A stretch of 64,000 bases of DNA. Source: Candidatus Niyogibacteria bacterium CG10_big_fil_rev_8_21_14_0_10_46_36. GTDB lineage: Bacteria; Patescibacteriota; Minisyncoccia; 1-14-0-10-42-19. Location of the stretch: NCBI GenBank assembly GCA_002772995.1, contig PFCO01000008.1:23150-87149 (forward strand), given 5' to 3'. Within the stretch, counting starts at the first letter, position 1. Each line of letters opens with the position of its first letter. The position numbers were made by a program, and so were the translations under genes. This document shows, piece by piece, positions 1,669 through 50,967 of the stretch. The notes under the pieces were generated by a model, which saw only the letters and a program-made list of their open reading frames with translations, did not search any database and was not told where the DNA came from.

Positions 1669-3141
1669 ATGAAAAAAATACTCATTATCGCGGTTATTAT
1701 TGTGGGCGCTGCCGGGCTTTTCTTTTGGAAGGGTCCGTCTCCAAAAGCGGGATACACCGCGCTTGCCCCTGACACTATTGGCGGGGAAGGCGTGCTCTAT
1801 ACCTACACTATAAAAGGAGAATCAAACGGAGGCGGGGCGCTTTCGTTGTCGTTTACTGACGACGGCAATTATTCATTAATCAATATTGCGCTTGACCTGA
1901 ATGACAGCGGTGCATACGAGGATGACGAGTGGGTAGCTGAAAACCAGATTAGTTATGTCCAGAGAGGTACGGACAACAATTTTGCGGTAGACTTGCCCGA
2001 AGGAGAGCTGCCAAGCACTATTACAGGTATTGCAGCATTTTCGGCGGAACCCATGACAGAAGGCTGGTGGGACGGCGAGAATACGCGTACGATAACTATT
2101 ACTACGGAATCATTTGAATTGAATGATATTTTGGGACTTGATGTCCCGGGCAATGGTCCGGGAGTGTACAGAGGGTATGCCGACGGTTTTTCGGCGCGCA
2201 TGCCTGTCGCGTATGCCCAAACCTTTCCCACGGTGAATGTAGACAGCCAGCTGAATATCGGCGATTTGCGCCAATCAAATATGGAATGCGCGCCGACATC
2301 CATTACGAACAACCTTACCGGGCTTGCGGGCGCGAACGGCAGGAACGATTTGCCTTCAGCAGAGACCATGGTAGACCAGCTCAAATCGGATCTCAAATTT
2401 GGCGATGAAGGCGTTGCGGGTGTTTTGGATAAAAATTACATTGCAGGCAAAAACGCGTTTATGCGAAGATATAATCTTCCTATTGTTACGACCGAAATAT
2501 CAAACCCGTCTATTGAAGATATAGCAAACGCGATACAAAGCGGCGCTGTTGTAGAAATGGATCTTGCGTTTATCGAAGTAACTCCACAAGGGAACAATCA
2601 TGTCGCAAGCCATGTCGTAACGCTTACTGGCGTATCTTCAAACGGCTCGAGTGCTACGCTTCGCGGGCGCGATTCAGCTACACCTACCGGGAACGAGTCA
2701 TGGCAGTTTTTCCCCAAGCGCGCCGGCCAACCGTCTTCTCAAATGCACTACCCCATGTGGAGGAAGGGCGCCACAGTTATAAATAAAATATACATACAGC
2801 GGTATGTATCAGTTGATGATGCGGTTGCGGCAGGTGTGTTGCCGCAGGGCGTTGTGGGGAGCACCTACCCGGTAGACATGCTTGTTATTGGCGGGAAATA
2901 TTATCCCAAAGACCAGTTTACGGTTGGCAACAACCCAGAGGACGCATGCGGAGCGCCGCACTATCACAAACACACAACCGCGTACGGCTTGCAGTCAAAA
3001 ACAAGCATTGCGATAGTGCAGGCAAATGATCCCAATCCAAACTCCTGCGGATTCGGTAAAGTATCTGATGTACCCACCGAAACCGTCCGCTTAACATGGG
3101 AGCAGCAGCAGGCGATTGCCGGCGCTCTTTTAACACCCTAG
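1669..3141 (+). CDS. Hypothetical secreted or membrane-anchored protein (490 aa)
   Basis: N-terminal hydrophobic anchor MKKILIIAVIIVGAAGLFFW. Long ORF with no overlapping alternative; no domain I recognise. Confidence 0.7.
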   Translation: MKKILIIAVIIVGAAGLFFWKGPSPKAGYTALAPDTIGGEGVLYTYTIKGESNGGGALSLSFTDDGNYSLINIALDLNDSGAYEDDEWVAENQISYVQRGTDNNFAVDLPEGELPSTITGIAAFSAEPMTEGWWDGENTRTITITTESFELNDILGLDVPGNGPGVYRGYADGFSARMPVAYAQTFPTVNVDSQLNIGDLRQSNMECAPTSITNNLTGLAGANGRNDLPSAETMVDQLKSDLKFGDEGVAGVLDKNYIAGKNAFMRRYNLPIVTTEISNPSIEDIANAIQSGAVVEMDLAFIEVTPQGNNHVASHVVTLTGVSSNGSSATLRGRDSATPTGNESWQFFPKRAGQPSSQMHYPMWRKGATVINKIYIQRYVSVDDAVAAGVLPQGVVGSTYPVDMLVIGGKYYPKDQFTVGNNPEDACGAPHYHKHTTAYGLQSKTSIAIVQANDPNPNSCGFGKVSDVPTETVRLTWEQQQAIAGALLTP

Positions 3142-6102: not shown

Positions 6103-6225
6103 ACGCGACAATATATATAAATAGGAGGTTTTATAAGACCTTATTTTTTGTTTTTGTCAAGGTTACCATGTGAGCATATTTGGGTATACTGCGTTATAGA
6201 TTTAGTTCACATAAAAGGAGGCTAT

Positions 6226-7269
6226 ATGACACACCAAGACATCCTTTCCGCGTTACGCGGCAGTTCGTCTCTTCTTGCAAAGCATTTAGAGCCGGAATTA
6301 TTAGATTCACTGGAAGGCGCACGCACAAGCCGTGGTTTTGCGATTGCTGATGTTATCCGTTCCGGGGTTGAAAACACCGATAGCGGAGTGGGGGTATACA
6401 TCCCTGACGAAGAATCCCTTGAGACCTTTGGTCCATTTTTAAAAAAGATAATTACGGCATACCATGGGTTTGGCGAGGGCGATTCGCATAGACGTGATTT
6501 TGCGGTTGCCGAAGATGAACTAAAAGATTTGGATCCGACGGGCGAGTTTATTATTTCTACGCGGGTTCGTGTCGGGCGGAATCTCAAAGGGTATCCCTTT
6601 GCGCCGGGCATCACTCAGGAAGAGCGGAAAGAGGTTGAACAAAAGATAGTCTCAGCACTCGGTACATTAACGGATGATCTTGCGGGCATGTATTATCCGC
6701 TTGCGGGGATGAAAGAAGATATACGCGCGCAGTTAGTCGCCGACCACTTTTTATTCAAGCAGGGCGACCGCTTTTTGGAGAGTGCCGGTGCAAACCGCGA
6801 CTGGCCTGATGCTCGGGGTATTTTTCATTCCGCAGACAAGAAGTTCTTGGTATGGGTGAACGAAGAAGACCAGCTGCGCATCATCTCTATGGAACAGGGC
6901 GGCAATCTTCACTCGGTGTACAACCGCTTGGTGCGCGCATTCACGGCGCTCGAGAAGAAGCTGGACTTTGCCTATTCCGAGAGATACGGATTCCTTTCAA
7001 GCTGTCCTACGAATTTAGGAACCGCAATGCGTGCAAGCGTGCATATTAAGCTTGCGGGGCTTGAGAAAAGCGGAAAGCTCAAAGAAGCATGCGATGCGCT
7101 TAAGCTTTCGGTGCGCGGGATACACGGAGAACATTCCGAAAGTGCAGGCGGCGTATATGATATTTCAAACAAGCAGCGGCTCGGCATTTCGGAAGCAGAC
7201 ATCATCCGGGTGCTTGCGAACGGCGTTCGTAATCTTATAGCGCTTGAGAAAAGCCACCTGAAAAAATAG
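6226..7269 (+). CDS. Arginine kinase (ATP:guanidino phosphotransferase), eukaryote-type, with N-terminal specificity domain
   Basis: Ribosome-binding site aaaaggagg 5 nt upstream of ATG 6226. Translation carries the phosphagen-kinase signature CPTNLGT, FLVWVNEEDQLRIISME, STRVRVGRNLKGYPF, and an N-terminal SGVENTDSGVGVY substrate-specificity loop. McsB-type protein-arginine kinases lack this N-terminal domain. Confidence 0.9.
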   Translation: MTHQDILSALRGSSSLLAKHLEPELLDSLEGARTSRGFAIADVIRSGVENTDSGVGVYIPDEESLETFGPFLKKIITAYHGFGEGDSHRRDFAVAEDELKDLDPTGEFIISTRVRVGRNLKGYPFAPGITQEERKEVEQKIVSALGTLTDDLAGMYYPLAGMKEDIRAQLVADHFLFKQGDRFLESAGANRDWPDARGIFHSADKKFLVWVNEEDQLRIISMEQGGNLHSVYNRLVRAFTALEKKLDFAYSERYGFLSSCPTNLGTAMRASVHIKLAGLEKSGKLKEACDALKLSVRGIHGEHSESAGGVYDISNKQRLGISEADIIRVLANGVRNLIALEKSHLKK

Positions 7270-13096: not shown

Positions 13097-13678
13097 ATGA
13101 AATCAAAAGGATTTATTATGCCGCTTATTATTGTGATAATCGCGGCGGGTATTATTGGCGCTGTAGTGTACATGCAGCGATCATCCGATACATACAAGGG
13201 CGATGACGCCATGATGGAAGATGACATGACGAAGGATGATGCCATGATGGAAGGAGATGAAATGATGGAAGGAGACGCAACCATGGAAGTACCCGCGCCG
13301 GGCAATGAAGGGGTTGATGAAATGATGGAAGGCGGTGATGTGATGATGGAGGGTGAATCTCCAAAAACAGTTACTGTCACCTATACGCAGAATGGCTTTT
13401 CTCCGTCTCCCGTGAATGTGAGTGTCGGTGACACGGTCCGTTTTATGAATGAAAGCGGGCGCTCATTTTGGCCTGCATCCGCGTTTCATCCGACACACAC
13501 CGTATATCCCGGTTCGGACATAAAAAAATGCGGCACAGCAGAAGCAGCAACTATTTTTGACGCGTGCCGAGAAATTGTTTCCGGGCAGTCGTACTCTTTT
13601 ACGTTCACTGAAGCGGGGACATGGAATTATCATGACCATCTGAACGCATCGGAGTTTGGTTCTATTATAGTGAAATAG
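13097..13678 (+). CDS. Exported Met-rich protein with C-terminal cupredoxin-like domain
   Basis: N-terminal anchor or signal MKSKGFIMPLIIVIIAAGIIGAVV. Residues 36-87 contain 12 Met in D-x-MMEG-[DG] repeats. The C-terminal roughly 100 aa resembles a cupredoxin-like beta-sandwich (VTVTYTQNGFSPSPVNVSVGDTVRFMN...GTWNYHDHLNASEFGSIIVK), but the canonical type-1 copper Cys ligand is not obvious. Confidence 0.7.
   Translation: MKSKGFIMPLIIVIIAAGIIGAVVYMQRSSDTYKGDDAMMEDDMTKDDAMMEGDEMMEGDATMEVPAPGNEGVDEMMEGGDVMMEGESPKTVTVTYTQNGFSPSPVNVSVGDTVRFMNESGRSFWPASAFHPTHTVYPGSDIKKCGTAEAATIFDACREIVSGQSYSFTFTEAGTWNYHDHLNASEFGSIIVK
13202..13357 (+). repeat. In-frame tandem-like coding repeats encoding a Met-rich low-complexity region (four MMEG units)
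   Basis: Nucleotide repeats gatgccatgatggaaggagat / gaaatgatggaaggagac / gatgaaatgatggaaggcggt / gtgatgatggagggtgaa. Confidence 0.7.
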
Positions 13679-13680
13679 CC

Positions 13681-14295
13681 ATGCGCGAAACCCGCACAGG
13701 ATTTGGAACGGTCATTCTGATAGTTTTTGCGGCGATTATTCTTTTGGGTGGCGGCGCATACATTGTTTTAGAGAAGAACACCGCTACTGATCGCGGCAGC
13801 GAGGAGCGTATGGATACCGAAAAAGATACGGGCATGACGGAGGAAGAAGCACCGAAAAAAGATGATAAAGATAATACCGCGAGCAAGGATTCAATGGATG
13901 GCGCAGACACAGAGACATCTTTTAGCAGCGTGGTGCTTGCGGGGTCGGAGTCACTGCTCCTTGATTTTTCAAAAATGGATTACGAAAAAGCTCTTTCCTC
14001 AAAAAAGATAGTAGTGCTTTACTTTTATGCGAACTGGTGCCCGATATGTAAGGCGGAATTTCCGAAGATGCAATCGGCGTTCAACGGGTTTTCAGATGCA
14101 GATATTATCGGTTTCCGTGTGAACTTTAACGATAACGAAACCGACCAATACGAAAAAGACCTTGCGCGCCAGTTCGGTGTTGCCTATCAGCATACGAAAG
14201 TCATCTTGAAAAATGGAGAGCGGGTACTCAAATCTCCTGAGTCATGGGAAGAGAACCGCTACATATCCGAAATTAATGCCATAGCAGTGAATTAA
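13681..14295 (+). CDS. Membrane-anchored thioredoxin-fold thiol:disulfide oxidoreductase (TlpA/ResA-like)
   Basis: N-terminal TM helix; VVLYFYANWCPICKAEFPK carries a CxxC (CPIC) motif in a thioredoxin-like context. Confidence 0.8.
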   Translation: MRETRTGFGTVILIVFAAIILLGGGAYIVLEKNTATDRGSEERMDTEKDTGMTEEEAPKKDDKDNTASKDSMDGADTETSFSSVVLAGSESLLLDFSKMDYEKALSSKKIVVLYFYANWCPICKAEFPKMQSAFNGFSDADIIGFRVNFNDNETDQYEKDLARQFGVAYQHTKVILKNGERVLKSPESWEENRYISEINAIAVN

Positions 14296-14297
14296 TT

Positions 14298-15002
14298 ATG
14301 CTTGATGTGTCGTTCATCGTCGCTTTTTTAGCAGGGTTGGTATCGTTTTTATCTCCCTGTGTGCTCCCGATAGTCCCGGGCTTTTTGGCGTATCTTTCAG
14401 GAACATCTACTTCGGAATCCGCAAGCCGGCTCCGTATCTTTTTGAACAGCTTTGTGTTTGTTCTCGGATTTTCGGTCGTATTTGCCCTGTTGGGTGTGCT
14501 CCTGAACACGCTTTTAGAATCGGTTGCGTATGATGTTCAGATATGGCTCGCGAGGATTGGCGGTGCGATCATTATCTTTTTTGGGTTGTATCTTGCTGGG
14601 CTCTTTCATATCCCGTTCTTAGAACAGCAGCATAAATTCGCCGTAAAAAAGAAATTCGCAAATTCATACATCACCTCATTTTTATTCGGCGCTGCGTTTG
14701 CTGCCGGGTGGACTCCATGCGTGGGTGCAGCGCTTGGCGCTATTCTTGGACTGGCGGCCACCGCTCCCGGGAAAGCATTTTATCTCTTGTTTATGTATTC
14801 ATTAGGGCTTGGCGTTCCGTTTCTGATCGTGGGGCTTTTTGTTTCCCGCGCAGAGGCTTATATCAACCGGTATGCAGGAGCACTTTCGTATGTAAGCAAG
14901 GCATTCGGCATCATTCTGATCGTTCTCGGAGTGCTTGTTTTTACCCAGAGCTTGAATTTGATAGCAAATTTCGGTTTTCTTAATAACTTGTTGCTGCAGT
15001 GA
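14298..15002 (+). CDS. ccdA: Cytochrome c-type biogenesis / thiol-reductant transfer membrane protein CcdA (DsbD transmembrane-core family)
   Basis: LSPCVLPIVPGF and GWTPCVGAALGA are the two conserved Cys motifs of CcdA/DsbD-beta. Six TM helices. Confidence 0.85.
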   Translation: MLDVSFIVAFLAGLVSFLSPCVLPIVPGFLAYLSGTSTSESASRLRIFLNSFVFVLGFSVVFALLGVLLNTLLESVAYDVQIWLARIGGAIIIFFGLYLAGLFHIPFLEQQHKFAVKKKFANSYITSFLFGAAFAAGWTPCVGAALGAILGLAATAPGKAFYLLFMYSLGLGVPFLIVGLFVSRAEAYINRYAGALSYVSKAFGIILIVLGVLVFTQSLNLIANFGFLNNLLLQ

Positions 15003-16132
15003 TGACTGTATCAAAACAAACAATCTTTTCTGTTGTAGTACTGGTGCTTGTTGTGGGTGCGATAGTGTATCTTGAATCACGGAAAGCGGACATCCCGTCA
15101 TTATTGGGGAACCAAGATGTAACTATCTTGAACGAAGGAGAGCGCGTTGCCGAAAAAGAAAAAAAATTTGAACCGGCAAAAGAAATATCAACGCCGGACG
15201 GATTTATCAATACCGATGGTGTTACGATAAGCGAGCTTATCGGTAAAAAAATCATCTTGGTTGATTTTTGGACATATTCCTGTATCAATTGCCAGCGCAC
15301 TACCCCGTATTTAAATTCATGGTATGAAAAATATGCGGACGACGGGCTGGTTATTTTGGGTCTTCACACGCCCGAGTTTGAATTTGAGAAAGATTATGAC
15401 AACGTGGCTCGTGCGGTGGAGAAATTTGGCATTGAATATCCGGTTGTATTAGATAACGACTATTCTACATGGCGATCGTATGAGAACCGGTATTGGCCAC
15501 GCAAATACTTGATAGATATAGATGGCTTTATTGTGTATGACCACATTGGTGAAGGAGCGTACGAAGAAACGGAACAGAAGATAGTAGAATTGTTAAATGA
15601 ACGGAGCGCCGTATTAGGAGAAGATGCGGTTACGCTGGACGAAAAAAACCCGGAGTATATCCAGGATGTTGAGTTTGATAAGGTGCAGTCTCCCGAAATG
15701 TATTTTGGGTACGACCGTTTGCAATATATTGGAAATACATTTTTACGCTCATGTTTGGATTCGGTTTGCGATTTTGATGCAAAAACAGATATTCAGCGAA
15801 ATACATTTAATTTAGATGGCTCGTGGCAGATAGGGCCGGAGGATACGGTGCTCAAGAACGGCGAGGGTGCAATCATACTCGGGTTTTCTGCGTCAAAAGT
15901 AAATCTTGTTGCCGGGACTGACGGTGGCGAGATAGAAGCAGAGATATATCTTGATGGAGAGCGGGTTGATGCGGCATACAAGGGCGCGGATGTTGATGAA
16001 AATGGTGTTGTGCGGTTCGGCGCACATGACCTGTATAATCTGATAGATTTGCATGGAGACTACGGCGAGCATGTCCTCTGGATAATGATAAAGCAGCCCG
16101 GACTCCAGGCATTTGCGTTTACGTTCGGGTAA
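14999..16132 (+). CDS. Membrane-anchored thioredoxin-like protein (CINC active site) with an extra C-terminal beta-rich domain; DipZ C-terminal-like
   Basis: N-terminal TM helix; WTYSCINCQRTTPYL CxxC motif; YWPRKYLIDIDGFIV is redoxin-like. A C-terminal domain of about 150 aa resembles the carbohydrate-binding-like domain found after the thioredoxin domain in mycobacterial DipZ (recognition from memory). Overlaps the ccdA stop by 4 nt. Confidence 0.75.
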   Translation: MMTVSKQTIFSVVVLVLVVGAIVYLESRKADIPSLLGNQDVTILNEGERVAEKEKKFEPAKEISTPDGFINTDGVTISELIGKKIILVDFWTYSCINCQRTTPYLNSWYEKYADDGLVILGLHTPEFEFEKDYDNVARAVEKFGIEYPVVLDNDYSTWRSYENRYWPRKYLIDIDGFIVYDHIGEGAYEETEQKIVELLNERSAVLGEDAVTLDEKNPEYIQDVEFDKVQSPEMYFGYDRLQYIGNTFLRSCLDSVCDFDAKTDIQRNTFNLDGSWQIGPEDTVLKNGEGAIILGFSASKVNLVAGTDGGEIEAEIYLDGERVDAAYKGADVDENGVVRFGAHDLYNLIDLHGDYGEHVLWIMIKQPGLQAFAFTFG

Positions 16133-16153
16133 TATGCAAAATGTATAAATAAC

Positions 16154-16179
16154 AAAAATACCGCCTATGCGGTATTTTT
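16154..16179 (+). terminator. Rho-independent terminator (ATACCGC-ctat-GCGGTAT, then TTTTT)
   Basis: Seen in sequence between the thioredoxin-like gene and msrA. Confidence 0.8.
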
Positions 16180-16193
16180 GTTATGATGACGAT

Positions 16194-16736
16194 ATGAATA
16201 AAAAAGTAATTGTTTTTGGCGGAGGCTGTTTTTGGTGCACCGAAGCCGTGTTCAAAATGCTTAAGGGTGTTCTTTCTGTAACCCCGGGTTATGCGGGCGG
16301 TACGACAAAAGACCCTTCCTATGAAGACGTATCAGCGCATAAAACAGGACATGCCGAAGTCGTGCGCATTGAATATGATGCTGATATCATGCCGCTCCAT
16401 GATTTGTTAACGGTATTTTTTGCAACGCATGACCCGACAACGCCCAACCGCCAGGGAAATGATGTCGGTGAACAGTATCGCTCCATTATTTTGTACACGG
16501 ACGAAGAGCAAAAAAAAGAAGCGGAAGCGTTTATCGAAAAATTAAACGGATCAATGGAGGAAGGCGAGCCAATAATAACCGCAATACAGCCGCTTGATGC
16601 GTTTTATGAAGCAGAAGATTATCACAAAGATTATTTTGAGAAAAATCCGCAAAATCCCTATTGTCAAATAGTTATCAACCCCAAGCTCGACAAGGTCCAA
16701 AAGGAATTTGCAGAGCTGGTAAAAGAAAATGAATAG
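16194..16736 (+). CDS. msrA: Peptide methionine sulfoxide reductase MsrA
   Basis: GGGCFWCTEAVF active-site motif, GYAGG, HAEVVRIEYD. ATG 16194 is chosen because the longer track ORF overlaps the terminator hairpin. No signal peptide. Confidence 0.9.
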   Translation: MNKKVIVFGGGCFWCTEAVFKMLKGVLSVTPGYAGGTTKDPSYEDVSAHKTGHAEVVRIEYDADIMPLHDLLTVFFATHDPTTPNRQGNDVGEQYRSIILYTDEEQKKEAEAFIEKLNGSMEEGEPIITAIQPLDAFYEAEDYHKDYFEKNPQNPYCQIVINPKLDKVQKEFAELVKENE

Positions 16737-17274
16737 TATGCACGAACACACTCATGGGCAGGAACACGCGGGACATGTGGATACGTCAGCGATTCGCCGT
16801 TCATTCCGCGATTTTATTCCCCTTGTGGTTATTTTTGGGGTTATTGCTCTTTTCACGATTATGCAAAGCATGCGAGCGGGTGCGTGGGAGACCGCGTATC
16901 TTATGCGCAATTTTATGGGAGCATTTTTTATCGTATTCGGAGGATTTAAAATCATACGATGGAAGGGCTTTGTGGATGCATACCAGATATACGACATTGT
17001 CGCAAAACGAAGTAGGGTGTATGGGTATACATACCCCATAATAGAGTTAGGGCTTGGGTTTTCGTATCTTTTTTCGTTCCAACTTGCTCTTGTTCAAGTA
17101 ATAACAATAGCAATCATGTGCATCGGGGCTATTGGAGTAGGGCAGGAGCTAGTGAAAAAGAACACCATCCCATGTGCTTGTCTTGGTGTGGTGTTTAAAA
17201 TACCTATGACCAAAGTAACGTTTTTTGAAGACATTCTCATGGCGGCAATGGCTGCGGGGATGTTTTTTGTGTAA
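16729..17274 (+). CDS. MauE/DoxX-like redox-associated membrane protein with His-rich N-terminus
   Basis: Four TM helices and a conserved-looking PCACLG Cys pair near the C-terminus. The N-terminal MHEHTHGQEHAGH is His-rich. Family assignment is by resemblance only. Confidence 0.55.
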   Translation: MNSMHEHTHGQEHAGHVDTSAIRRSFRDFIPLVVIFGVIALFTIMQSMRAGAWETAYLMRNFMGAFFIVFGGFKIIRWKGFVDAYQIYDIVAKRSRVYGYTYPIIELGLGFSYLFSFQLALVQVITIAIMCIGAIGVGQELVKKNTIPCACLGVVFKIPMTKVTFFEDILMAAMAAGMFFV

Positions 17275-26498: not shown

Positions 26499-26562
26499 CA
26501 AAACATACCATTGTGCATAACTACACTCGCCGATTGGCGGATGCTGTTTTATAATAAAACAT

Positions 26563-27363
26563 ATGAAAACATATCGAATGCTCGCAATTTTTCTTGCGTT
26601 TATCGGGCTCGGTATTATGATTTACCTGTCTTATTTGCATTACGCCAACACGCAGTCGTTTTGTGATTTTTCTGAAGAGGTATCGTGCGATGTGGTAACT
26701 ACAAGTTTGTATTCCGAGGTATTTGGCGTTCCCATATCCCTTTTGGGGGCAGGATTTTTTGGCGTATTGTTGCTTTTGCTCTTTTTGAACAAGAAAGATG
26801 ATGTATTCCAGGCGGTATTTTTCCTAACGCTTTTAATGCTTGTTCCCTCTTTGTACTTTACACTTCTTGAAGCTACTGTGATTGGAGCATTTTGCGTGTT
26901 ATGCGAATCGTCAAAGGCGGTTATGGGTGCAATTCTTGTAGTTTCATTTTTGGCAGTACGAAAGGTTGCCCCCTTTCCATATAAGCAAATTATCCCAATT
27001 GTTATCGGCGGTCTTCTTGTTATTGGGGTCATATTTTTTGCGCAAGCAGGAGGCGGCACTAAGGAGGATTATTCCGAATTATTTTTATGTGCGAATGATA
27101 ATGGAATAACATACTATAAGTCAGTTAGGTGCAGTAGCTGCAGACAACAGGAAAAAGTATTTGGACCCGCATACACAACATTGCGTGCGATTGAGTGTCA
27201 TCCGGAAGGAGATAATCCGCAACCCGAGCTTTGTCTAGAGAAAGAAATATCAAAAACCCCGACATTTATTCTTGAGAGGGACGGGCAAGAAGTAAAACGA
27301 GTTATCGGCATCCAGCAAATTGATGCATTTGCCGAGTTCGCGGAGTGTTCTATTGATAAGTAA
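26563..27363 (+). CDS. Vitamin K epoxide reductase (VKOR) homologue fused to a C-terminal thioredoxin-like domain
   Basis: VKOR loop Cys pair SFCDFSEEVSCD and TM CxxC (FCVLCES). The C-terminal soluble domain carries CSSC in a thioredoxin-like context (YYKSVRCSSCRQQEKVFGPAY...TPTFILE). Confidence 0.8.
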   Translation: MKTYRMLAIFLAFIGLGIMIYLSYLHYANTQSFCDFSEEVSCDVVTTSLYSEVFGVPISLLGAGFFGVLLLLLFLNKKDDVFQAVFFLTLLMLVPSLYFTLLEATVIGAFCVLCESSKAVMGAILVVSFLAVRKVAPFPYKQIIPIVIGGLLVIGVIFFAQAGGGTKEDYSELFLCANDNGITYYKSVRCSSCRQQEKVFGPAYTTLRAIECHPEGDNPQPELCLEKEISKTPTFILERDGQEVKRVIGIQQIDAFAEFAECSIDK

Positions 27364-27380
27364 TTTATATTTTTAATTTT

Positions 27381-28103
27381 ATGTTAGAAGGAAATCTCAC
27401 ACTAGGTATTATTATTGGAGCAGCGCTTCTGGATAGCATCAATCCTTGTGTCATTGGTGTTTTGGTATTTTTGATAGCGTTTATGACACGGGTGTTTAAG
27501 AGCAGGAATCGTATGCTTGTAGGGGGTCTTGTGTATACGCTTGTTGTGTACCTTACCTATTTGCTCTTAGGATTTGGTATTCTCCGGCTTACATTTTTGA
27601 GCCCTGATGTCGCAACTACATTTTATTGGATTGTAGCAATCATCGCCATTTTTGCAGGTTTTTTGGAGATAAAGGATTACTTTTGGTACGGGAAAGGATT
27701 TTCGTTGCAGATGATACCCGGCGCATCAGCCCGCATTAAGGCATACACGGATTGGATTGAGCGCATACAATCTCGTCACTTCAGCTTACTCCTACTAACT
27801 ATGGTAGTGTTGGGTGTTTTTGTCGTTCTTGTTGAGCTCCCGTGCACAGGTGCTCCGTATTTGGCAGTGCTCGGCCTTTTGTCTCAGGGGCATTATGCAT
27901 CTGCGGTGCCGTTATTGCTACTGTATAACTTCATATTTGTTCTTCCGCTTCTCTTTATCATTGGGTTTGCGTATTTCGGGACCTCCTCAGAACGATTAGA
28001 GGCATGGCGGCGTCAGCATCGCGGACTTATGCGTCTTTTGGTGGGCATCTTCCTTATCGTGCTTGGATTCTACATGATCTATTCGTTGAATCCGGTGTTT
28101 TAA
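27381..28103 (+). CDS. DsbD/CcdA-like transmembrane thiol-reductant transporter (DsbD_2-like)
   Basis: Two conserved TM cysteines (DSINPCVIGVLVF and VELPCTGAPYLAV); 6 TM helices. Confidence 0.7.
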   Translation: MLEGNLTLGIIIGAALLDSINPCVIGVLVFLIAFMTRVFKSRNRMLVGGLVYTLVVYLTYLLLGFGILRLTFLSPDVATTFYWIVAIIAIFAGFLEIKDYFWYGKGFSLQMIPGASARIKAYTDWIERIQSRHFSLLLLTMVVLGVFVVLVELPCTGAPYLAVLGLLSQGHYASAVPLLLLYNFIFVLPLLFIIGFAYFGTSSERLEAWRRQHRGLMRLLVGIFLIVLGFYMIYSLNPVF

Positions 28104-28119: not shown

Positions 28120-28154
28120 AAAAGAGAAACCCCTGAATTATTCAGGGGTTTTTT
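28120..28154. terminator. Bidirectional terminator (CCCCTGAA-tta-TTCAGGGG, flanked by A-run and T-run)
   Basis: Seen in sequence between convergent genes. Confidence 0.85.
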
Positions 28155-28155
28155 G

Positions 28156-28968
28156 TTACCTTCGTGAGGGTGTGTATGGAAAAAGGGGCGTATGTTCCGG
28201 AGCTCTTGGCGCTTTTTCAGGAATGGTTTGGGCACACGCGTTAAATCCGTTTTCTTTATCTGTATCGCAGAAGCGCTTTATGGGAATGGCAAAGCTAATG
28301 CCGGAACCCGGCCAAAGAGCGGTAGGCACGCCTATAAGATCGCCTTGGCTATCAAATAAGCCGCCACCGCTGTTCCCCGGATTGACATGCAGGTAGAGCT
28401 CCATAAATGGATACAGAGTGCCAGGCATCTTTCGTGCGGGGTGTGTGATGTAGCCCCATGAGACATCCCACTGGAGAATTCCAAACGGATGGCCAATCGT
28501 GATAACCTCTTCCCCGATAGCATCATCGCGGTTCATGTTATCAAAATCTCGAGCGTCAATCTTTGCATATGACCCGAAGGTCGTATCTATTTTCAGCCGA
28601 GCCATGTCTTTTTCGTTGTCTACCCATTCTATCTTTTTTAGGGGAAAACGCTCTCCGTTCCAGAGCTCGATAGTGATCTCTTTTATTTCGAACGAAGGCG
28701 GCGCAGTAACTACATGCGCGTTCGTAAAAATTATCCCGTCAGGGTGTACGATAACTCCCGAGCCTATGCCACGGAAGGTGGCGCCTGCAGGATTTTGCGT
28801 TGAGATGAAATCCACGGTAATCGCAACAACGACTCGTTTCGTTATTCGGAAATTTTGCCGTATGATGGGCGCATACGAGCTAAGCTCTTGCCGTGGGGGC
28901 GCAGATGATGCCGCTGTTACAAACGGAAGCATGCAGCATAACAGAAATACGGTTACTACTTTGGGCAT
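28156..28968 (-). CDS. Secreted trypsin-like serine protease (S1 family, no PDZ domain)
   Basis: Signal peptide, then His motif TNAHVV and Ser motif GNSGGGLFD. Confidence 0.8.
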   Translation of the reverse strand: MPKVVTVFLLCCMLPFVTAASSAPPRQELSSYAPIIRQNFRITKRVVVAITVDFISTQNPAGATFRGIGSGVIVHPDGIIFTNAHVVTAPPSFEIKEITIELWNGERFPLKKIEWVDNEKDMARLKIDTTFGSYAKIDARDFDNMNRDDAIGEEVITIGHPFGILQWDVSWGYITHPARKMPGTLYPFMELYLHVNPGNSGGGLFDSQGDLIGVPTALWPGSGISFAIPIKRFCDTDKENGFNACAQTIPEKAPRAPEHTPLFPYTPSRR

Positions 28969-37183: not shown

Positions 37184-40100
37184 ATGACCGAGTGGAGTTC
37201 AATAATTCCTCGTTTATTGAAGGTAATAATGTCGATATCGTACCGGGATGATTTGTTGGACGCGATACGGAACGATGCGGCGCTCAATTCCGCATTACAG
37301 GCAACTCCGTATGTAGCGTTTTTAAGCAAGCTGAATGCAGAGGAAAGAAAAGGATCTGACATAGGCAAGCAGTGGGCGAGCCTACCCAAGCGGGAGCCAA
37401 AAAAGGCAAAAAAGAAAGCAAGGCTATCGTCCGAAGCAGCAGCACTTGAAAAACGCATCAAATTAGAACTCGCTCAGTTTGTCCATAGTGGAAATATAAA
37501 AAGCGAGGACGATGTAGATGCGTTATACGAACAGATTCGGTCTTCCTTTGGGAAAGACATCAAGATAACGCAGTATCGTTTCGGAAAAAGGAAGTATAAA
37601 TCGCTCATCGATGATCTTTTATGGACGGGCGGGAAAGACGGAACATTTACGGCGCTGAAAGAGATAGTCCGCAAGGATCTCCCTATTGAAAAGTTTTCCG
37701 AATATCATCCGCATATTCCTGTTTCATTGGTAGAAAAAAAGAAGCAGGAAATCTCTGGAGTGACGCAGACATCGCTTCCGGTGAAGCTATTGCCAGGAGT
37801 GGGGAGACTGACTGACGACATCCGCCATGCAGATGCCAATTTCAGCTTTCCCGGTAATTCGTATCATGAGCCGTTTGTGATATCGGGAGGAAAATCAGAT
37901 TTTTCCTTTATCGTTATCAATGGCCCTCAGGTCGGCATGCAGTATAGCAAGGTTATTGCAGAGAATCCTGTTCGCTGTGCGCTTGCGCAGGCGGAACGGG
38001 ACAAGTGCGATGCGGTGCTTCTTACGGGAACTATCGATGTGGATACGAAAAAGGCTGCGGGCCCCACAAAAGCGCTTCGCGCGCTCTTTTCGGGGAGAAA
38101 TACGAATGTAGACATGTTAAATCCCATCTACCAGAAAGAGGCAAAGAGCATTTTAAGTGAGGCGATGGGGCGAGATATCGTCTATGAAACGACTGCGGAA
38201 ATCTTCTCCAACCTGTTAAGCGGATGGAGAAAGATAACTATTCAGCCCGATGAGCAGCCAGAATTTAACGGTGATGTGTTTATCGTATTCGGTCCGAAAG
38301 AAGAAGAGATTATCTTGGCAGGTGCGTATTGGGAACTGCATTACAATACCATGCGCAAGATTGATCTTATCTTGGCGGAGATTAGCGTTGCCCGCAGCGG
38401 TCTTGCACGTGCGAAAAAAAACGGCAATACCCGGGAAGAACGTAAGTTGGAAAACAAACTTCTCGAACTTCAGGATCTGCGTACGCGTACGCGTATGACA
38501 AATGTGAGCGTTGAAGACTGGAAAAAGATGTACCGTAAGATGCTTGCGTTTGTTGTCCGCAGCTTTGAACAGACAATTCCGAACGCAAAAGTTATCAATA
38601 AAGGGACGACCTATCTGAAGGTAAATGGGTCAGTGTTTGAGATGCATATCCCGAGCACGCTCCAGGTAACTGACGCACTGCTTTCAAAATTCGTAGGGTC
38701 GTATGCACATGCGACATTGCGAAAGAGCTTTGCTGACACTGTTGTGATATGCCATCCGTATGCGATAAACCACCGGGTAACAGCGCGCGAAATAGATGCT
38801 GAGGGCAAACGCCGTTCGGCAGAGATTCATGTAGCGCCTATCTGTGTTGACGGTGTGATATTGCGCGACCGGATAAAGACCATAACAAAGAGTGTTCACG
38901 CAATACAGCGGGCAGTGTTCCATCCGTTGTTCAACCCCGGGGTGCTGAAGTTCCGTTGCGCCAAGGGGCTCATCACGACAAGCATGTTCGGTATTGATGC
39001 GCTTCGCAAGCATCTTCGTATTCTTTCCGGCGCGGAAAGCAAAACCAAAATAGCAGATAAATATATTTATCTGTTTGTGGGGACTGATCCGCACTGGGGG
39101 AGCAGAAGCAAAGAATTTATCTGGTGCGACGAAAGGCGCGAGTATCTCGGCATGACCGAATGCGCGTTTCATCTGCTCCGGAAATACCGCAATATGAAAT
39201 CTTTGGGTGTTCACATGTTCGTTTCTAATGACGACATTACCCAGGGACATCATTTCCCTTCGCAAAAACAGCCGCACCAAAACCAGATGCCGTATGACTT
39301 CTTTGAAAAGAAATGGGGTGAGGCGATTGCTGAGGCTGAAAAAGTAGCGGAGAATAACGATCCGAAAGCGTTGTTCAAATTGCTTCGGGATATGAGAGAT
39401 CTTTCGCTAGACCAGATTCGCGTGCGCGGTATTGATTGGGTGCGTGACCAGCTTGAAGAGGTCCTATACCGCCACCTAAAACCGAATGTCGATATATTTG
39501 ACGGCATTCTTTCATCGGGAACGCGCGCAGGGCTTATAGTGAAAGGCGCGTCTCATTATCTGCAGACGCAGTTTGACCGGAGGGATATTGGTCTCATTAA
39601 TTTCGGCGACGGAAACCATTTTTCAAAGACGACAGACAGGAATCTTATGGAAAATACCATCGTTGCGCAGTACCTGCGGCTCCTGCTGGGTCAGATGAAA
39701 AAATGGGAAAAAGAAAAAGATCTTCTCGATGCCCTTGTCCGCGATCCGATACACGGCAATCAGTTTATCGGCTGGGGAACGGTAGAAGCGCCTGGCGGAT
39801 ATGTATGGGCGTTCGATCTCCGGAGCTCTCCTACGGGACTGGGAATTGATTGGAATGATCCGTTCCTGAAAATGTCACGCAATGACATGAAGCGCGGAAA
39901 CTTTACGCGGTTTTTTGAGAACAAGTATACGGTCAAGGTGGTAGGTGATAAGCATTTCTACACGACACAATGCACCGCTCAGGCACTGTATCTCATGGGA
40001 CCGCCGGGGACATCTACGGATGTATACGGTGAGCTTGGTTTTCCGCCGAATAATACGGGAATTCTTTTTGTAGGACTTCCGGCGGAAGGTCCTGATGCCG

Positions 40101-40201
40101 GGCCAATTCTTTTCCGGCCGCTCCTGTATGATCGTCTGCGCGAATATATAGAAGAGAAAAAACCATTTGATTGGGATTCATTCCTCCCCAATCCGTTATA
40201 A
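37184..40201 (+). CDS. Large orphan cytoplasmic protein (1005 aa); Lys-rich N-terminal region; C-terminal half carries degenerate metallophosphoesterase-like motifs
   Basis: Uninterrupted 3018-nt ORF with a strong ribosome-binding site, its own promoter and a terminator at 40233-40261. No TM or signal sequence. Candidate motifs are LFVGTDPHWG (D-x-H), SNDDITQGHH (GD-x-x-D-x-G-like) and FGDGNHF (GNH). Confidence 0.85.
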   Translation: MTEWSSIIPRLLKVIMSISYRDDLLDAIRNDAALNSALQATPYVAFLSKLNAEERKGSDIGKQWASLPKREPKKAKKKARLSSEAAALEKRIKLELAQFVHSGNIKSEDDVDALYEQIRSSFGKDIKITQYRFGKRKYKSLIDDLLWTGGKDGTFTALKEIVRKDLPIEKFSEYHPHIPVSLVEKKKQEISGVTQTSLPVKLLPGVGRLTDDIRHADANFSFPGNSYHEPFVISGGKSDFSFIVINGPQVGMQYSKVIAENPVRCALAQAERDKCDAVLLTGTIDVDTKKAAGPTKALRALFSGRNTNVDMLNPIYQKEAKSILSEAMGRDIVYETTAEIFSNLLSGWRKITIQPDEQPEFNGDVFIVFGPKEEEIILAGAYWELHYNTMRKIDLILAEISVARSGLARAKKNGNTREERKLENKLLELQDLRTRTRMTNVSVEDWKKMYRKMLAFVVRSFEQTIPNAKVINKGTTYLKVNGSVFEMHIPSTLQVTDALLSKFVGSYAHATLRKSFADTVVICHPYAINHRVTAREIDAEGKRRSAEIHVAPICVDGVILRDRIKTITKSVHAIQRAVFHPLFNPGVLKFRCAKGLITTSMFGIDALRKHLRILSGAESKTKIADKYIYLFVGTDPHWGSRSKEFIWCDERREYLGMTECAFHLLRKYRNMKSLGVHMFVSNDDITQGHHFPSQKQPHQNQMPYDFFEKKWGEAIAEAEKVAENNDPKALFKLLRDMRDLSLDQIRVRGIDWVRDQLEEVLYRHLKPNVDIFDGILSSGTRAGLIVKGASHYLQTQFDRRDIGLINFGDGNHFSKTTDRNLMENTIVAQYLRLLLGQMKKWEKEKDLLDALVRDPIHGNQFIGWGTVEAPGGYVWAFDLRSSPTGLGIDWNDPFLKMSRNDMKRGNFTRFFENKYTVKVVGDKHFYTTQCTAQALYLMGPPGTSTDVYGELGFPPNNTGILFVGLPAEGPDAGPILFRPLLYDRLREYIEEKKPFDWDSFLPNPL

Positions 40202-48543: not shown

Positions 48544-50967
48544 ATGATGCTTATATATGGCATTGTTGCATATCTTCCATTCCTCATAGTAGGCGTTATC
48601 GCCATCGGAGTTGTGCTTTATTTTGTAAATCATATGCGCACTCGGCGCCAGCTGGAGCGTTCGTTACAGTTTGTGTTGTATGAGGTCACATTCTCGGAAG
48701 AGGAATCTCCCGTAGGGGAGGGGGGCTTTAAGAATTTCATTTCTGTGATGGAGCAGTTTTATAGCGGCATGAGCGCGATCAGCGAAGCAAAAGTCCCATG
48801 GGGCATTGGAAAAAATTTTTATGTGCTGGAACTTGCGTTACCCGACATAGGGGAGGAGACCACATTTTATGTCGGCATGCAGCATGCCCATCGGCGTATT
48901 TTCGAAAAGCAGCTCGAAAGTCTTTTCCCGCATGCTCGGGCGGAAGTCGTCCAGCATGATTACAATATTTTTAACGCGGAAGGCGCAAGCAAGGGCGCGG
49001 TCATAACGCTGTCGAAAAATTTTGCGCTTCCGGTGCGCACCTACGACAAACTGGAAGCCGACCCGCTGGAGGTGCTTGCAAATGCTTTTTCTAAATTGAA
49101 GAAAAAGGGAGAAGGAGCGGCTCTTCAAATTATTGTAGAGCCCGCAGAAAAAGAAGTGGTCCGGAAAATACACAAAGCGCGCGAAATGCTTTTAGAGGGC
49201 AATTCTCTTTCGCAAAGCGAGGCGAGCGGATGGATGGGAGAGCTTTCAAGAACATTTCGTATATTTTCCAGCTCATCATCTTCAGTAAAGAAAAAAGAAG
49301 ACCCAAAACAGCGGGTGTATGAGGAGGCGGTAAAATTGGTGGAAGAAAAAATGAATTCCCCCCTCTTTAAAGTAAACATACGCATCATCACTTCTGCCCC
49401 CACCGAAGAAGAAGCAGGCGGCATTTTAAAAGAGATATCGTCAGCGTTTCTTCAGTTTTCGGAACCCCAAGGAAATCAATTTATGGTACAAGACATAAAA
49501 CGATCGAAATTGCAGGAATTCTTTTATCTGTTTTCGTTTCGTATGTTTTCGGGGGCGTCGGCTTCATATATAAACGCTCGTGAGCTTACGAGCGTTTATC
49601 ACTTTCCGTACGGCGCGGTTTCTGCACCAAGGTTAAAAACTCTTAAGTCAAAAGATGCGCCCGCTCCGGCAAATCTTCCCCAGGAAGGGATTCTTTTGGG
49701 CACAAATTCATTCCGTGGAGAGTATCTCCCGGTGCGCATGAAGCTTGATGACCGCAGGCGGCATCAGTATATCATCGGGCAGACAGGAACCGGAAAGTCC
49801 GAATTTATGAAAAACATGATCCGCCAGGATATCGAGATCGGGCAGGGGATTTGCGTTATCGATCCGCACGGAGATATGGTGAGCGATATTTTAGGGCAGA
49901 TTCCTGAAGAGCGTGTTCAGGATGTGATTTATTTTGATCCGGGGAATGTAGATATGCCTATGGGACTTAATTTTCTTGAATATGACGAGCGTTATCCCGA
50001 ACAAAAAACATTTGTTGTTGATGAACTTCTGGCTATATTTAATAAACTCTACAATATGGAGCTTGCGGGTGGGCCAATGTTTGAGCAATATTTCAGGAAT
50101 GCCGCACACTTGGTTCTTGAAGACCCGTCATCCGGCAATACCTTATTAGAAATTATCCGTGTGCTTTCTGATAAAGCATTCCGGGATTACAAACTCTCCC
50201 GGTCAAAAAATCCTTTGGTGAATGCGTTTTGGAAAGAGATTGCTGAAAAGGCAGGAGGGGAGCACGCGCTTCAGAATATGATCCCGTATATCACTTCAAA
50301 ATTTGATACATTCCTTTCAAACGAGATTATGCGCCCTATTATTGCGCAACAGCACTCCGCGTTCCAGATGCGCGATGTAATGGATAACGGCAAGATACTA
50401 CTAGTAAATCTTTCCAAGGGCCGTGTGGGTGAGACAAACTCTGCCTTATTGGGGTTGGTTATCGTCGGCAAAATTCTTATGGCGGCATTTTCCCGGGCAA
50501 GCGAAACGCATCAGGAACAGCGGCGGGATTTTTTCTTGTACTTGGATGAGTTTCAAAGCATTACTACGCCCTCTATCGCAACCATTCTTTCGGAAGCACG
50601 CAAATATAAGCTCAATCTCATTATGGCGCATCAATTTATCGGCCAGCTATCCGAAGATATACGGAAATCCGTCTTCGGCAATGTCGGGACAATGGTCTCA
50701 TTCCGCATCGGAAGAGAAGACGCCGAAATCATTGAGAAGCAGTTTGAGCCGGTATTTTCGGCGCACGATCTCACAAACATAGAGAATTTTCAGGCATATA
50801 TTAAAATGCTTATAGGCGGGCAAACAGCAAAGCCGTTCAATATTCGGACATTCCCTCCGAAAGAAAGCAATGCGGTTGAGGCTGAAGCAATCAAAGAATT
50901 GTCCTCCCAGAAATATGGTCGTCCCCGGAAAGAGATAGAGGAGGAAGTTATGAGGCGATACCAATAA
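48544..50967 (+). CDS. TraG/VirD4/TraD-like (type IV coupling protein family) membrane ATPase with a roughly 400-aa N-terminal extension
   Basis: N-terminal TM helix. Walker A GQTGTGKS, followed by VIDPHGD, Walker B-like FLYLDEFQS and AHQFIGQL...FGNVGTMVSFRIG, which resembles the C-terminal motif of TraG/VirD4/DUF87 ATPases. Confidence 0.7.
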   Translation: MMLIYGIVAYLPFLIVGVIAIGVVLYFVNHMRTRRQLERSLQFVLYEVTFSEEESPVGEGGFKNFISVMEQFYSGMSAISEAKVPWGIGKNFYVLELALPDIGEETTFYVGMQHAHRRIFEKQLESLFPHARAEVVQHDYNIFNAEGASKGAVITLSKNFALPVRTYDKLEADPLEVLANAFSKLKKKGEGAALQIIVEPAEKEVVRKIHKAREMLLEGNSLSQSEASGWMGELSRTFRIFSSSSSSVKKKEDPKQRVYEEAVKLVEEKMNSPLFKVNIRIITSAPTEEEAGGILKEISSAFLQFSEPQGNQFMVQDIKRSKLQEFFYLFSFRMFSGASASYINARELTSVYHFPYGAVSAPRLKTLKSKDAPAPANLPQEGILLGTNSFRGEYLPVRMKLDDRRRHQYIIGQTGTGKSEFMKNMIRQDIEIGQGICVIDPHGDMVSDILGQIPEERVQDVIYFDPGNVDMPMGLNFLEYDERYPEQKTFVVDELLAIFNKLYNMELAGGPMFEQYFRNAAHLVLEDPSSGNTLLEIIRVLSDKAFRDYKLSRSKNPLVNAFWKEIAEKAGGEHALQNMIPYITSKFDTFLSNEIMRPIIAQQHSAFQMRDVMDNGKILLVNLSKGRVGETNSALLGLVIVGKILMAAFSRASETHQEQRRDFFLYLDEFQSITTPSIATILSEARKYKLNLIMAHQFIGQLSEDIRKSVFGNVGTMVSFRIGREDAEIIEKQFEPVFSAHDLTNIENFQAYIKMLIGGQTAKPFNIRTFPPKESNAVEAEAIKELSSQKYGRPRKEIEEEVMRRYQ

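Follow-up and report, generated by a model that had tools for sequence, protein, structure and literature searches.

Background

Fusions of VKOR to a thioredoxin (Trx) domain are well known. The solved Synechococcus protein has a relay made up of the CxxC of the Trx domain, a loop Cys pair and a membrane CxxC, through which electrons pass from substrate thiols to quinone. DsbD, with eight transmembrane (TM) helices, also couples a two-Cys TM relay to redox domains outside the membrane, and CcdA proteins with an anchored Trx-like partner (the CcdA-ResA/CcsX/Etrx type) have six TM helices, Pro-Cys motifs in TM1 and TM4 and a Trx-like gene on the 5' side. Here we describe two adjacent genes in which both kinds of protein are found together. 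They lie in a stretch of 64,000 nucleotides (nt), called the window below, from Candidatus Niyogibacteria bacterium CG10_big_fil_rev_8_21_14_0_10_46_36 (assembly GCA_002772995.1, contig PFCO01000008.1, positions 23,150 to 87,149 of the forward strand). Gene A encodes a VKOR-Trx fusion, and gene B a protein that profile comparison places in a distinct subfamily of the CcdA/DsbD superfamily, outside the Pfam families DsbD_TM and DsbD_2. Gene order in related genomes shows that the constant element is gene B together with a Trx-like domain outside the membrane, and that VKOR is the usual third component without being universal. We give an even chance to the reading that A and B form one conserved envelope thiol-disulfide module, comparable to a split DsbD or to a CcdA-ResA pair built on VKOR.

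26563..27363, + strand: gene A, VKOR-thioredoxin fusion, 266 amino acids (open reading frame list)
27381..28103, + strand: gene B, divergent CcdA-superfamily protein with six TM helices and two Cys, 240 amino acids (open reading frame list)

VKOR has been listed among the protein families of the Candidate Phyla Radiation (CPR), with a suggested role in the re-oxidation of MdbA-like oxidases that fold pilins, and its adjacency to MdbA-like oxidoreductases in CPR genomes has been noted previously (PMC6744442). Two further systems resemble the gene pair. One account (PMC3842002) places an oxidising VKOR-Trx protein (LTO1) and a CcdA-type reductant route (CCDA/HCF164) in one extracytoplasmic compartment of the thylakoid; the plant genes are unlinked there and are seen as opposing pathways, whereas here they form a conserved operon. 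The non-respiring Streptococcus gordonii has a CcdA (CcdA2) and a Trx-like protein (SdbB) as redox partners of the disulfide oxidase SdbA, according to PMC7034828; that system as described has no VKOR, its CcdA proteins are canonical and its link to gene B is by analogy only. An operon of a VKOR-Trx fusion and a CcdA-like protein, or this CcdA subfamily, is not described in the searchable literature, an absence that is not proof of novelty. Nor is a CcdA-like partner of the Synechococcus VKOR-Trx protein described in searchable papers; its gene neighbourhood was not looked at.

The VKOR-Trx subtype found here has an obligate-looking partner that standard annotation has missed. The partner is conserved across domains, and it occurs in lineages that reportedly have no complete electron transport chains (PMC7507113), which raises the question of what drives their envelope thiol chemistry and keeps it in balance.

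Gene A, a VKOR-thioredoxin fusion

26581..26946, + strand: VKOR domain, residues 7-128, four TM helices (Pfam match coordinates)
26662-26688, + strand: loop Cys pair C34/C42 (motif SFCDFSEEVSCD)
26893-26904, + strand: membrane CxxC, CVLC (within CVLCE), C111/C114 (sequence)
26986..27042, + strand: fifth TM helix, residues 142-160, which returns the chain across the membrane (hydropathy core)
27070..27342, + strand: extracytoplasmic Trx-like domain, residues 170-260 (profile match to 3KP8)
27130-27141, + strand: CSSC of the Trx-like domain, C190/C193 (sequence)

Both open reading frames were found on the + strand where an earlier sequence-only reading had put them, with its motifs SFCDFSEEVSCD, CVLCE and CSSC in place. 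That reading had called gene A a VKOR protein with a Trx-like domain expected to lie outside. The first part is borne out by Pfam, where the VKOR model PF07884 matches residues 7-128 with 81.2 bits (E=9.8e-23, cut-off 27.5). The second agrees with the predicted topology: there are five hydropathy cores, and the Lys and Arg (K+R) residues all lie at the N-terminus, in loop 2 or in loop 4; the loop Cys pair, the CxxC and the Trx-like domain are therefore predicted to be outside. The K+R-rich loop AVRKVAPFPYK precedes the fifth TM helix, and the alignment gives an arrangement like that of 3KP9. An identical database protein begins at Met6 (nt 26578), which is an alternative start for gene A.

A profile of 24 gene A family members is collinear with the Synechococcus VKOR-Trx protein (4NV2/3KP9) over 262 positions (E=1.5e-21), with C34/C42 and C111/C114 aligned to the catalytic Cys of 4NV2, and it also matches the isolated Trx-like domain 3KP8 (E=2e-9). 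The same domain reaches 20.7 bits with the Pfam Thioredoxin model, under its cut-off of 23.5. A second Cys pair, ECHP...C (C212/C224), is found in the Trx-like domain, and all of C34, C42, C111, C114, C190, C193, C212 and C224 are invariant in the 24 family members. Gene A and the Synechococcus protein (3KP9, 4NV2, 4NV5, 4NV6; Trx domain 3KP8) thus share five TM helices, the loop Cys pair and the TM4 CxxC, and both end in an outside Trx-like domain that carries its own CxxC and an ECxP...C pair. They differ at the Trx site, which is CPHC in Synechococcus and CSSC in gene A, and at the residue before the first Trx Cys, which is Trp in Synechococcus and Arg in gene A.

The best 120 of 164 gene A homologues are 49-100% identical to it, and those with a source name come from CPR bacteria. 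The dipeptide within the Trx CxxC is hypervariable in the family, with 28 variants among the 80 loci described below; the pattern across the family is C-[SNTGA]-x-C. Gene A is a VKOR-thioredoxin fusion, and its role in quinone-dependent disulfide generation is putative.

Gene B, a divergent CcdA subfamily

27432..27449, + strand: DSINPC in TM1, residues 18-23, with Cys23 (D18, S19, N21, P22 and C23 invariant in 22 sequences)
27666..27710, + strand: hallmark EIKDYFWYGKGFSLQ, residues 96-110, at the predicted cytoplasmic end of TM3 (conservation)
27834..27860, + strand: ELPCTGAPY in TM4, residues 152-160, with Cys155 (invariant in the close family)

Gene B is hypothetical in NCBI records and CcdA in JGI annotation. 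It has exactly two Cys, C23 and C155, and six hydropathy cores, and the K+R counts predict that both the N-terminus and the C-terminus are outside. Loop 3, which starts with EIKDYFWYGKGFSLQ, holds six K+R residues and is predicted to be cytoplasmic. The close family varies little or not at all at most residues of this hallmark, and K98, F101, Y103 and G104 are retained by at least 90% of 14 sequences, distant relatives among them. Nothing in canonical CcdA corresponds to the motif.

The sequence-only reading had described gene B as a DsbD_2/CcdA-like protein with two TM Cys, separate from a CcdA gene in a cluster at 13-17 kb of the window. The separate gene exists: a canonical CcdA lies at 14298-15002 (DsbD_TM, 66.6 bits). 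The two Cys and the CcdA relationship also stand, the latter through profile alignment; membership of DsbD_2 does not, since gene B has no match at E<=1 to either DsbD_TM (PF02683) or DsbD_2 (PF13386). DsbD_TM matches three of the 22 close relatives (best E=5.3e-7) and DsbD_2 one of them, and most have no Pfam match of any kind. Two distant relatives (P0253 and P0255) pass DsbD_TM with 45 and 35.6 bits (cut-off 27.1).

When the 62-sequence profile of the gene B family was aligned in hhalign with a 24-sequence profile of the canonical CcdA of the window, the probability was 96.6% (E=6.5e-10, 204 columns), with both Pro-Cys motifs in register (INPC with LSPC, and LPCTG with TPCVG; TPCVGA in full in the canonical protein). 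This run settles an ambiguous alignment of the close family with the single canonical CcdA sequence, which reached 51% and covered only the C-terminal half. Gene B is 25% identical to canonical CcdA over the aligned columns, and it differs further by an extra cytoplasmic motif, EIKD[YF]FWYGKGFSL, with an amphipathic helix after it, residues 113-130 of the structural model; six TM helices, Pro-Cys motifs in TM1 and TM4 and a Trx-like gene on the 5' side are shared with CcdA of the CcdA-ResA type, where the Trx partner is not fused to VKOR as it is here.

The family profile found nothing among PDB sequences, even at E<=10. The AF2 model made from the 62-sequence alignment (predicted local distance difference test score, pLDDT, 84; predicted template modelling score, pTM, 0.80) has six long TM helices (residues 8-38, 42-73, 75-101, 134-168, 172-198 and 214-236), with TM1 kinked at residues 20-21 immediately before P22-C23, and its top Foldseek match in the PDB is CcdA 5VKV (probability 0.82), a possible similarity of fold. 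It supersedes an earlier model from a shallow alignment of 22 sequences, which had a pLDDT of 68 and gave only noise in Foldseek. By sequence and profile comparison gene B is a distinct subfamily of the CcdA/DsbD superfamily, and the family deserves a profile model of its own.

The best Pfam match of gene B is SfLAP / GAP (PF11139), at 34.9 bits against a cut-off of 35 and with one of the 22 close relatives matching; it was rejected as the family of gene B and taken as a resemblance at the level of the clan. NCBIfam ArsG (E=9e-6, 25 bits against a cut-off of 200) was rejected likewise. Since these best matches are of the transporter type, one could read gene B as a member of the LysE/DsbD clan that has no redox function and transports, for example, a metal or a small thiol, with its two Cys binding the substrate. 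P-type ATPase, ZIP and MgtE genes recur close by, and one relative of gene B carries a YtkA-like domain. We consider this highly improbable: both Cys lie in Pro-Cys motifs that align with the redox Cys of CcdA, and the conserved partners and fused domains described below are of the thioredoxin fold.

Conserved gene order

A scan of one genome per GTDB species gave 562 relatives of gene B, and the neighbourhoods of the best 80 were compared, 75 of them with enough upstream DNA. The 80 loci come from CPR bacteria (Niyogi-, Uhr-, Terry-, Giovannoni-, Davies-, Woese-, Doudna- and Ryanbacteria, and others) and from DPANN archaea (Woese-, Nano-, Aenigm- and Micrarchaeota), with taxon labels used as deposited. 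Some third-party annotation (TPA) records of metagenome-assembled genomes (L004, L005, L013, L030, L035, L038 and others) are labelled 'uncultured Gammaproteobacteria', 'Methanosarcinales' or 'Saccharibacteria'. Their gene B homologues are 62-72% identical to that of the window, which is the range of the loci labelled CPR or DPANN, and the TPA labels therefore look unreliable.

A Trx-like gene lies immediately 5' of the gene B homologue in 70 of the 75 loci. It is a full VKOR-Trx gene on the same strand in 57, VKOR and Trx are split into separate adjacent open reading frames in three, and in ten only the homologous Trx-like domain, anchored to the membrane or by lipid, is found upstream. One locus has VKOR-Trx downstream of the gene B homologue, not upstream. 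The association holds in the reverse direction also: a gene B homologue lies directly 3' in all of the four VKOR-Trx loci that were sampled in addition to the 80, and in three of these four the pair is followed by DoxX and then by a DsbA-like gene. Genes A and B are predicted to be co-transcribed, and they are inherited together across CPR bacteria and DPANN archaea. Among the best database matches of VKOR-Trx and of gene B, many also carry an identical value for the longest contig.

The two genes also diverge together. Pairwise distances for A and for B are correlated (r=0.75), and none of 2000 permutations gave a value as high. Comparing bacterial with archaeal loci, gene B is 62% identical and gene A 32%. 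Canonical CcdA reaches a similar level, about 70% identity, among its own best matches in CPR, and therefore only the conservation of gene B across the two domains is notable.

Several other genes recur at these loci. Eight of the ten loci with only a Trx-like domain have a gene for a membrane-anchored rhodanese before the Trx-like gene (L021, L047, L048, L051, L052, L053, L056 and L071), about 400-1100 nt 5' of the gene B homologue. This rhodanese domain, present where VKOR is missing, matches Pfam at E=4e-14 and has two Cys in the region of the active-site loop. A small membrane-anchored PCYCGC-motif protein (PF13798, E=2e-21) is found in L046, L054, L061, L072 and L074, which are mostly archaeal. 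DoxX family genes adjoin the pair in L081, L082 and L084 and in 18 of the loci L001-L080, mostly directly 3' of the gene B homologue. DsbA-like (Thioredoxin_4) genes follow the pair in L081, L082 and L084 and are present in five of the 80 loci. A membrane protein without annotation, about 130 amino acids long, is found in 18 loci, and several loci have extra stand-alone VKOR genes. Together, the DoxX, DsbA-like, 130-residue and extra VKOR genes suggest a larger envelope redox island.

Natural fusions of gene B relatives

An exhaustive search with the gene B profile gave 3872 cluster representatives with E<=0.001, of which 192 had E<=1e-30. Many relatives are 350-420 amino acids long and begin with a signal peptide and a Trx-like or glutaredoxin (Grx)-like domain that is joined directly to TM1. 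The CxxC of the fused domain is CPHC, CSKC, CSHC or CTHC, and the gene B-like part keeps DSINPC, KDFFWYGKGFSL and ELPCTG. The fusions come from Paceibacterota, Pacearchaeota and Tiddalikarchaeum, that is, from both CPR and DPANN. These fusions give independent support for a gene B topology with the N-terminus outside, and they favour a DsbD-like scheme in which the membrane domain exchanges electrons directly with a thioredoxin fold on the outside. DsbD shares with gene B a two-Cys TM relay coupled to outside redox domains, which in the gene B relatives are likewise carried on the same chain. It differs in its number of TM helices, gene B having six, and here the outside domain belongs to another polypeptide, which includes a disulfide-generating enzyme as well.

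The sequence-only reading had an oxidative and a reductive envelope pathway encoded side by side. Stated in full, this would mean two independent pathways, in which VKOR-Trx makes disulfides and gene B is a general exporter of reductant to proteins other than gene A, for example separate Trx-like or DsbA-like proteins, peroxiredoxins or methionine sulfoxide reductase (Msr), so that the adjacency reflects co-regulation only. The thylakoid, with oxidative VKOR/LTO1 and reductive CcdA/HCF164 in a single compartment (PMC3842002), shows such an arrangement, and the DsbA-like and DoxX genes that often come after the pair would be possible clients close by. A general reductive role is, however, already fitted by the canonical CcdA of the window, in its cluster with Trx-like, peroxiredoxin-like and MsrA genes. 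The same Trx-like domain is also found upstream in the ten loci where VKOR is missing, and gene B relatives are covalently fused to Trx or Grx domains. Two separate pathways therefore seem unlikely to us, if still worth serious attention. The coupled module is favoured because the Trx-like gene is almost always upstream, with or without VKOR, and because of the Trx/Grx fusions; the picture of pathways that are only neighbours does not agree with these comparisons.

Proposed mechanism and direction of electron flow

If A and B act as one module, gene B would link a cytoplasmic partner to the Trx-like domain of gene A by thiol-disulfide exchange across the membrane, and the partner would dock at the family-specific motif EIKDYFWYGKGF of gene B. 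The direction would most likely be the canonical one, with reducing equivalents moving outward from the cytoplasmic thioredoxin system, because of the analogy with CcdA/ResA-type pairs and with the Trx-like/CcdA pair of the window (13681-15002). Gene A retains the full relay order of outside Trx CxxC, loop Cys pair and membrane CxxC. VKOR would oxidise the one Trx domain outside the membrane and gene B would reduce it again, so that in these minimal genomes the domain could act as a redox-poised oxidase plus isomerase or reductase. Electron transfer by gene B from cytoplasmic thioredoxin to an outside Trx-fold partner is putative and supported indirectly, by synteny and by the natural fusions. 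Both the electron direction, for which we argue by analogy, and the purpose of the module are unproven.

Several observations weigh against the coupled module. Gene B itself falls outside both Pfam models of the superfamily. The 80 loci are its closest relatives, which biases the sample, and synteny and co-divergence are partly due to shared phylogeny; in archaea alone the correlation of A and B distances is r=0.23. A PCYCGC-motif protein takes the place of the Trx domain upstream in four of the 75 loci and in one truncated locus. The fused Trx domains are not of the VKOR-linked subtype, with only one of 150 representatives matching the gene A profile. The link between gene B and the Trx domain of gene A is a prediction. 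Finally, to feed reductant to a Trx domain while its own fused VKOR drains it looks like a futile cycle. This apparent cycle keeps alive the independent pathways discussed above and two further readings, in which electrons run through the whole chain to quinone or in which gene B works in the oxidative direction.

According to the first of these, electrons would pass from cytoplasmic NADPH and thioredoxin through gene B, the Trx domain and VKOR to the membrane quinone, and the purpose would be quinol regeneration or disposal of fermentative reducing power, not protein folding. Every relay Cys is invariant, and DoxX family membrane proteins recur directly 3' of the pair. Vertebrate VKOR, and viral VKOR as proposed, chiefly regenerate hydroquinone (PMC13486548), and the CPR and DPANN lineages are those reported to lack complete electron transport chains (PMC7507113). 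We find this distinctly unlikely. The proposal is hypothetical in every part, the locus revealed neither a source of quinone nor a consumer of quinol, and the variants with only a Trx-like domain or with the PCYCGC protein keep gene B without VKOR.

An oxidative gene B would instead move electrons inward and re-oxidise the Trx domain or VKOR, which would spare quinone in organisms that do not respire. The S. gordonii proteins offer a parallel: an 'SdbA oxidative pathway' is described in which CcdA2 and SdbB are the redox partners of SdbA, an oxidase (PMC7034828, citing Jalal 2019). In that work both CcdA proteins reduce their Trx-like partners as well. Distant relatives of gene B are fused to Trx domains with a CPHC of the DsbA type, and the reported lack of complete electron transport chains in CPR and DPANN (PMC7507113) would suit a system of this kind. 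The cytoplasmic thioredoxin pool is strongly reducing, however, and inward flow requires an extra cytoplasmic oxidant, and VKOR keeps all of its quinone-linked catalytic Cys, which implies that quinone is still used. Inward flow is in our view quite improbable.

The boldest forms of these two ideas may be put together. The operon could be a complete transmembrane electron wire to a scavenged or host-derived quinone or, in mirror image, gene B could be a quinone-independent oxidant; this is speculative and we regard it as unlikely. If true, the wire would be an electron sink, or a quinol supply for neighbouring DoxX-type proteins, in ultra-small CPR and DPANN cells, and the mirror image would mean that a CcdA-like protein supplies the quinone-independent oxidant missing from the disulfide machinery. 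In both cases a further partner would bind to gene B at its invariant cytoplasmic motif. For the coupled module as for these forms, the locus offers a clonable two-gene system in which to ask whether one Trx domain is served by both an oxidase and a reductant transporter, in which direction the electrons move and what the partner of the motif is.

Transcription unit and flanking genes

26550..26555, + strand: candidate -10 box TATAAT, 7 nt 5' of the gene A ATG (read from sequence; weak evidence)
28127..28151, no strand assigned: nearly palindromic hairpin with an 11-bp stem (terminator-like site called on the - strand)

Genes A and B are on the same strand and 17 nt apart, and a scan of the window for terminator-like sites found none in the gap. 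A consensus scan requiring both hexamers gave no + strand promoter at gene A. Gene B ends with its stop at 28103 and a convergent protease gene with its stop at 28156; the hairpin at 28127-28151 falls between the two, and it is likely to be a bidirectional terminator that closes the two-gene unit. An efflux operon of the HlyD/ABC/MacB type is found 5' of gene A. On the 3' side of gene B, the convergent gene encodes a trypsin-like protease and is followed by SIMPL/DUF541 and thiolase genes. Base composition is even across the locus, which therefore gives no hint of a mobile island.

A second thiol-redox cluster

Another thiol-redox cluster occupies 13097-17274 of the window, with a weak cupredoxin-like open reading frame, an AhpC/TSA and Thioredoxin_10 protein, MsrA and a MauE-like gene. 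A membrane-anchored Trx-like gene (13681-14295, WCPIC) lies 2 nt 5' of the canonical CcdA described above. The cluster is similar to CcdA-Etrx-Msr reducing clusters, and its order of Trx followed by CcdA is that of the A/B pair. The MauE-like protein (16729-17274, Pfam E=1e-13) has a PCAC, that is, a CXC motif. A conserved CXC is reported to be the active site of MauE proteins that are able to replace DsbB (2026 preprint, 10.64898/2026.03.05.709764). By analogy, the genome may have a second disulfide-generating enzyme besides VKOR, in the form of this MauE-like protein.

Other genes in the window

The remaining genes of the window are ordinary CPR housekeeping genes, and no tRNA genes were found in it. 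Two large open reading frames, 37184-40201 (1005 amino acids) and 1669-3141 (490 amino acids), have no Pfam match at E<=1e-4. An 807-residue protein encoded at 48544-50967, amid housekeeping genes, matches TrwB/VirD4-type coupling proteins and HerA-like ATPases. The gene at 6148-7269 encodes an ATP:guanido phosphotransferase with N-terminal (70 bits) and catalytic (252 bits) domains; the protein is of the phosphagen/arginine-kinase type and not McsB-like, which is unusual in a bacterium.

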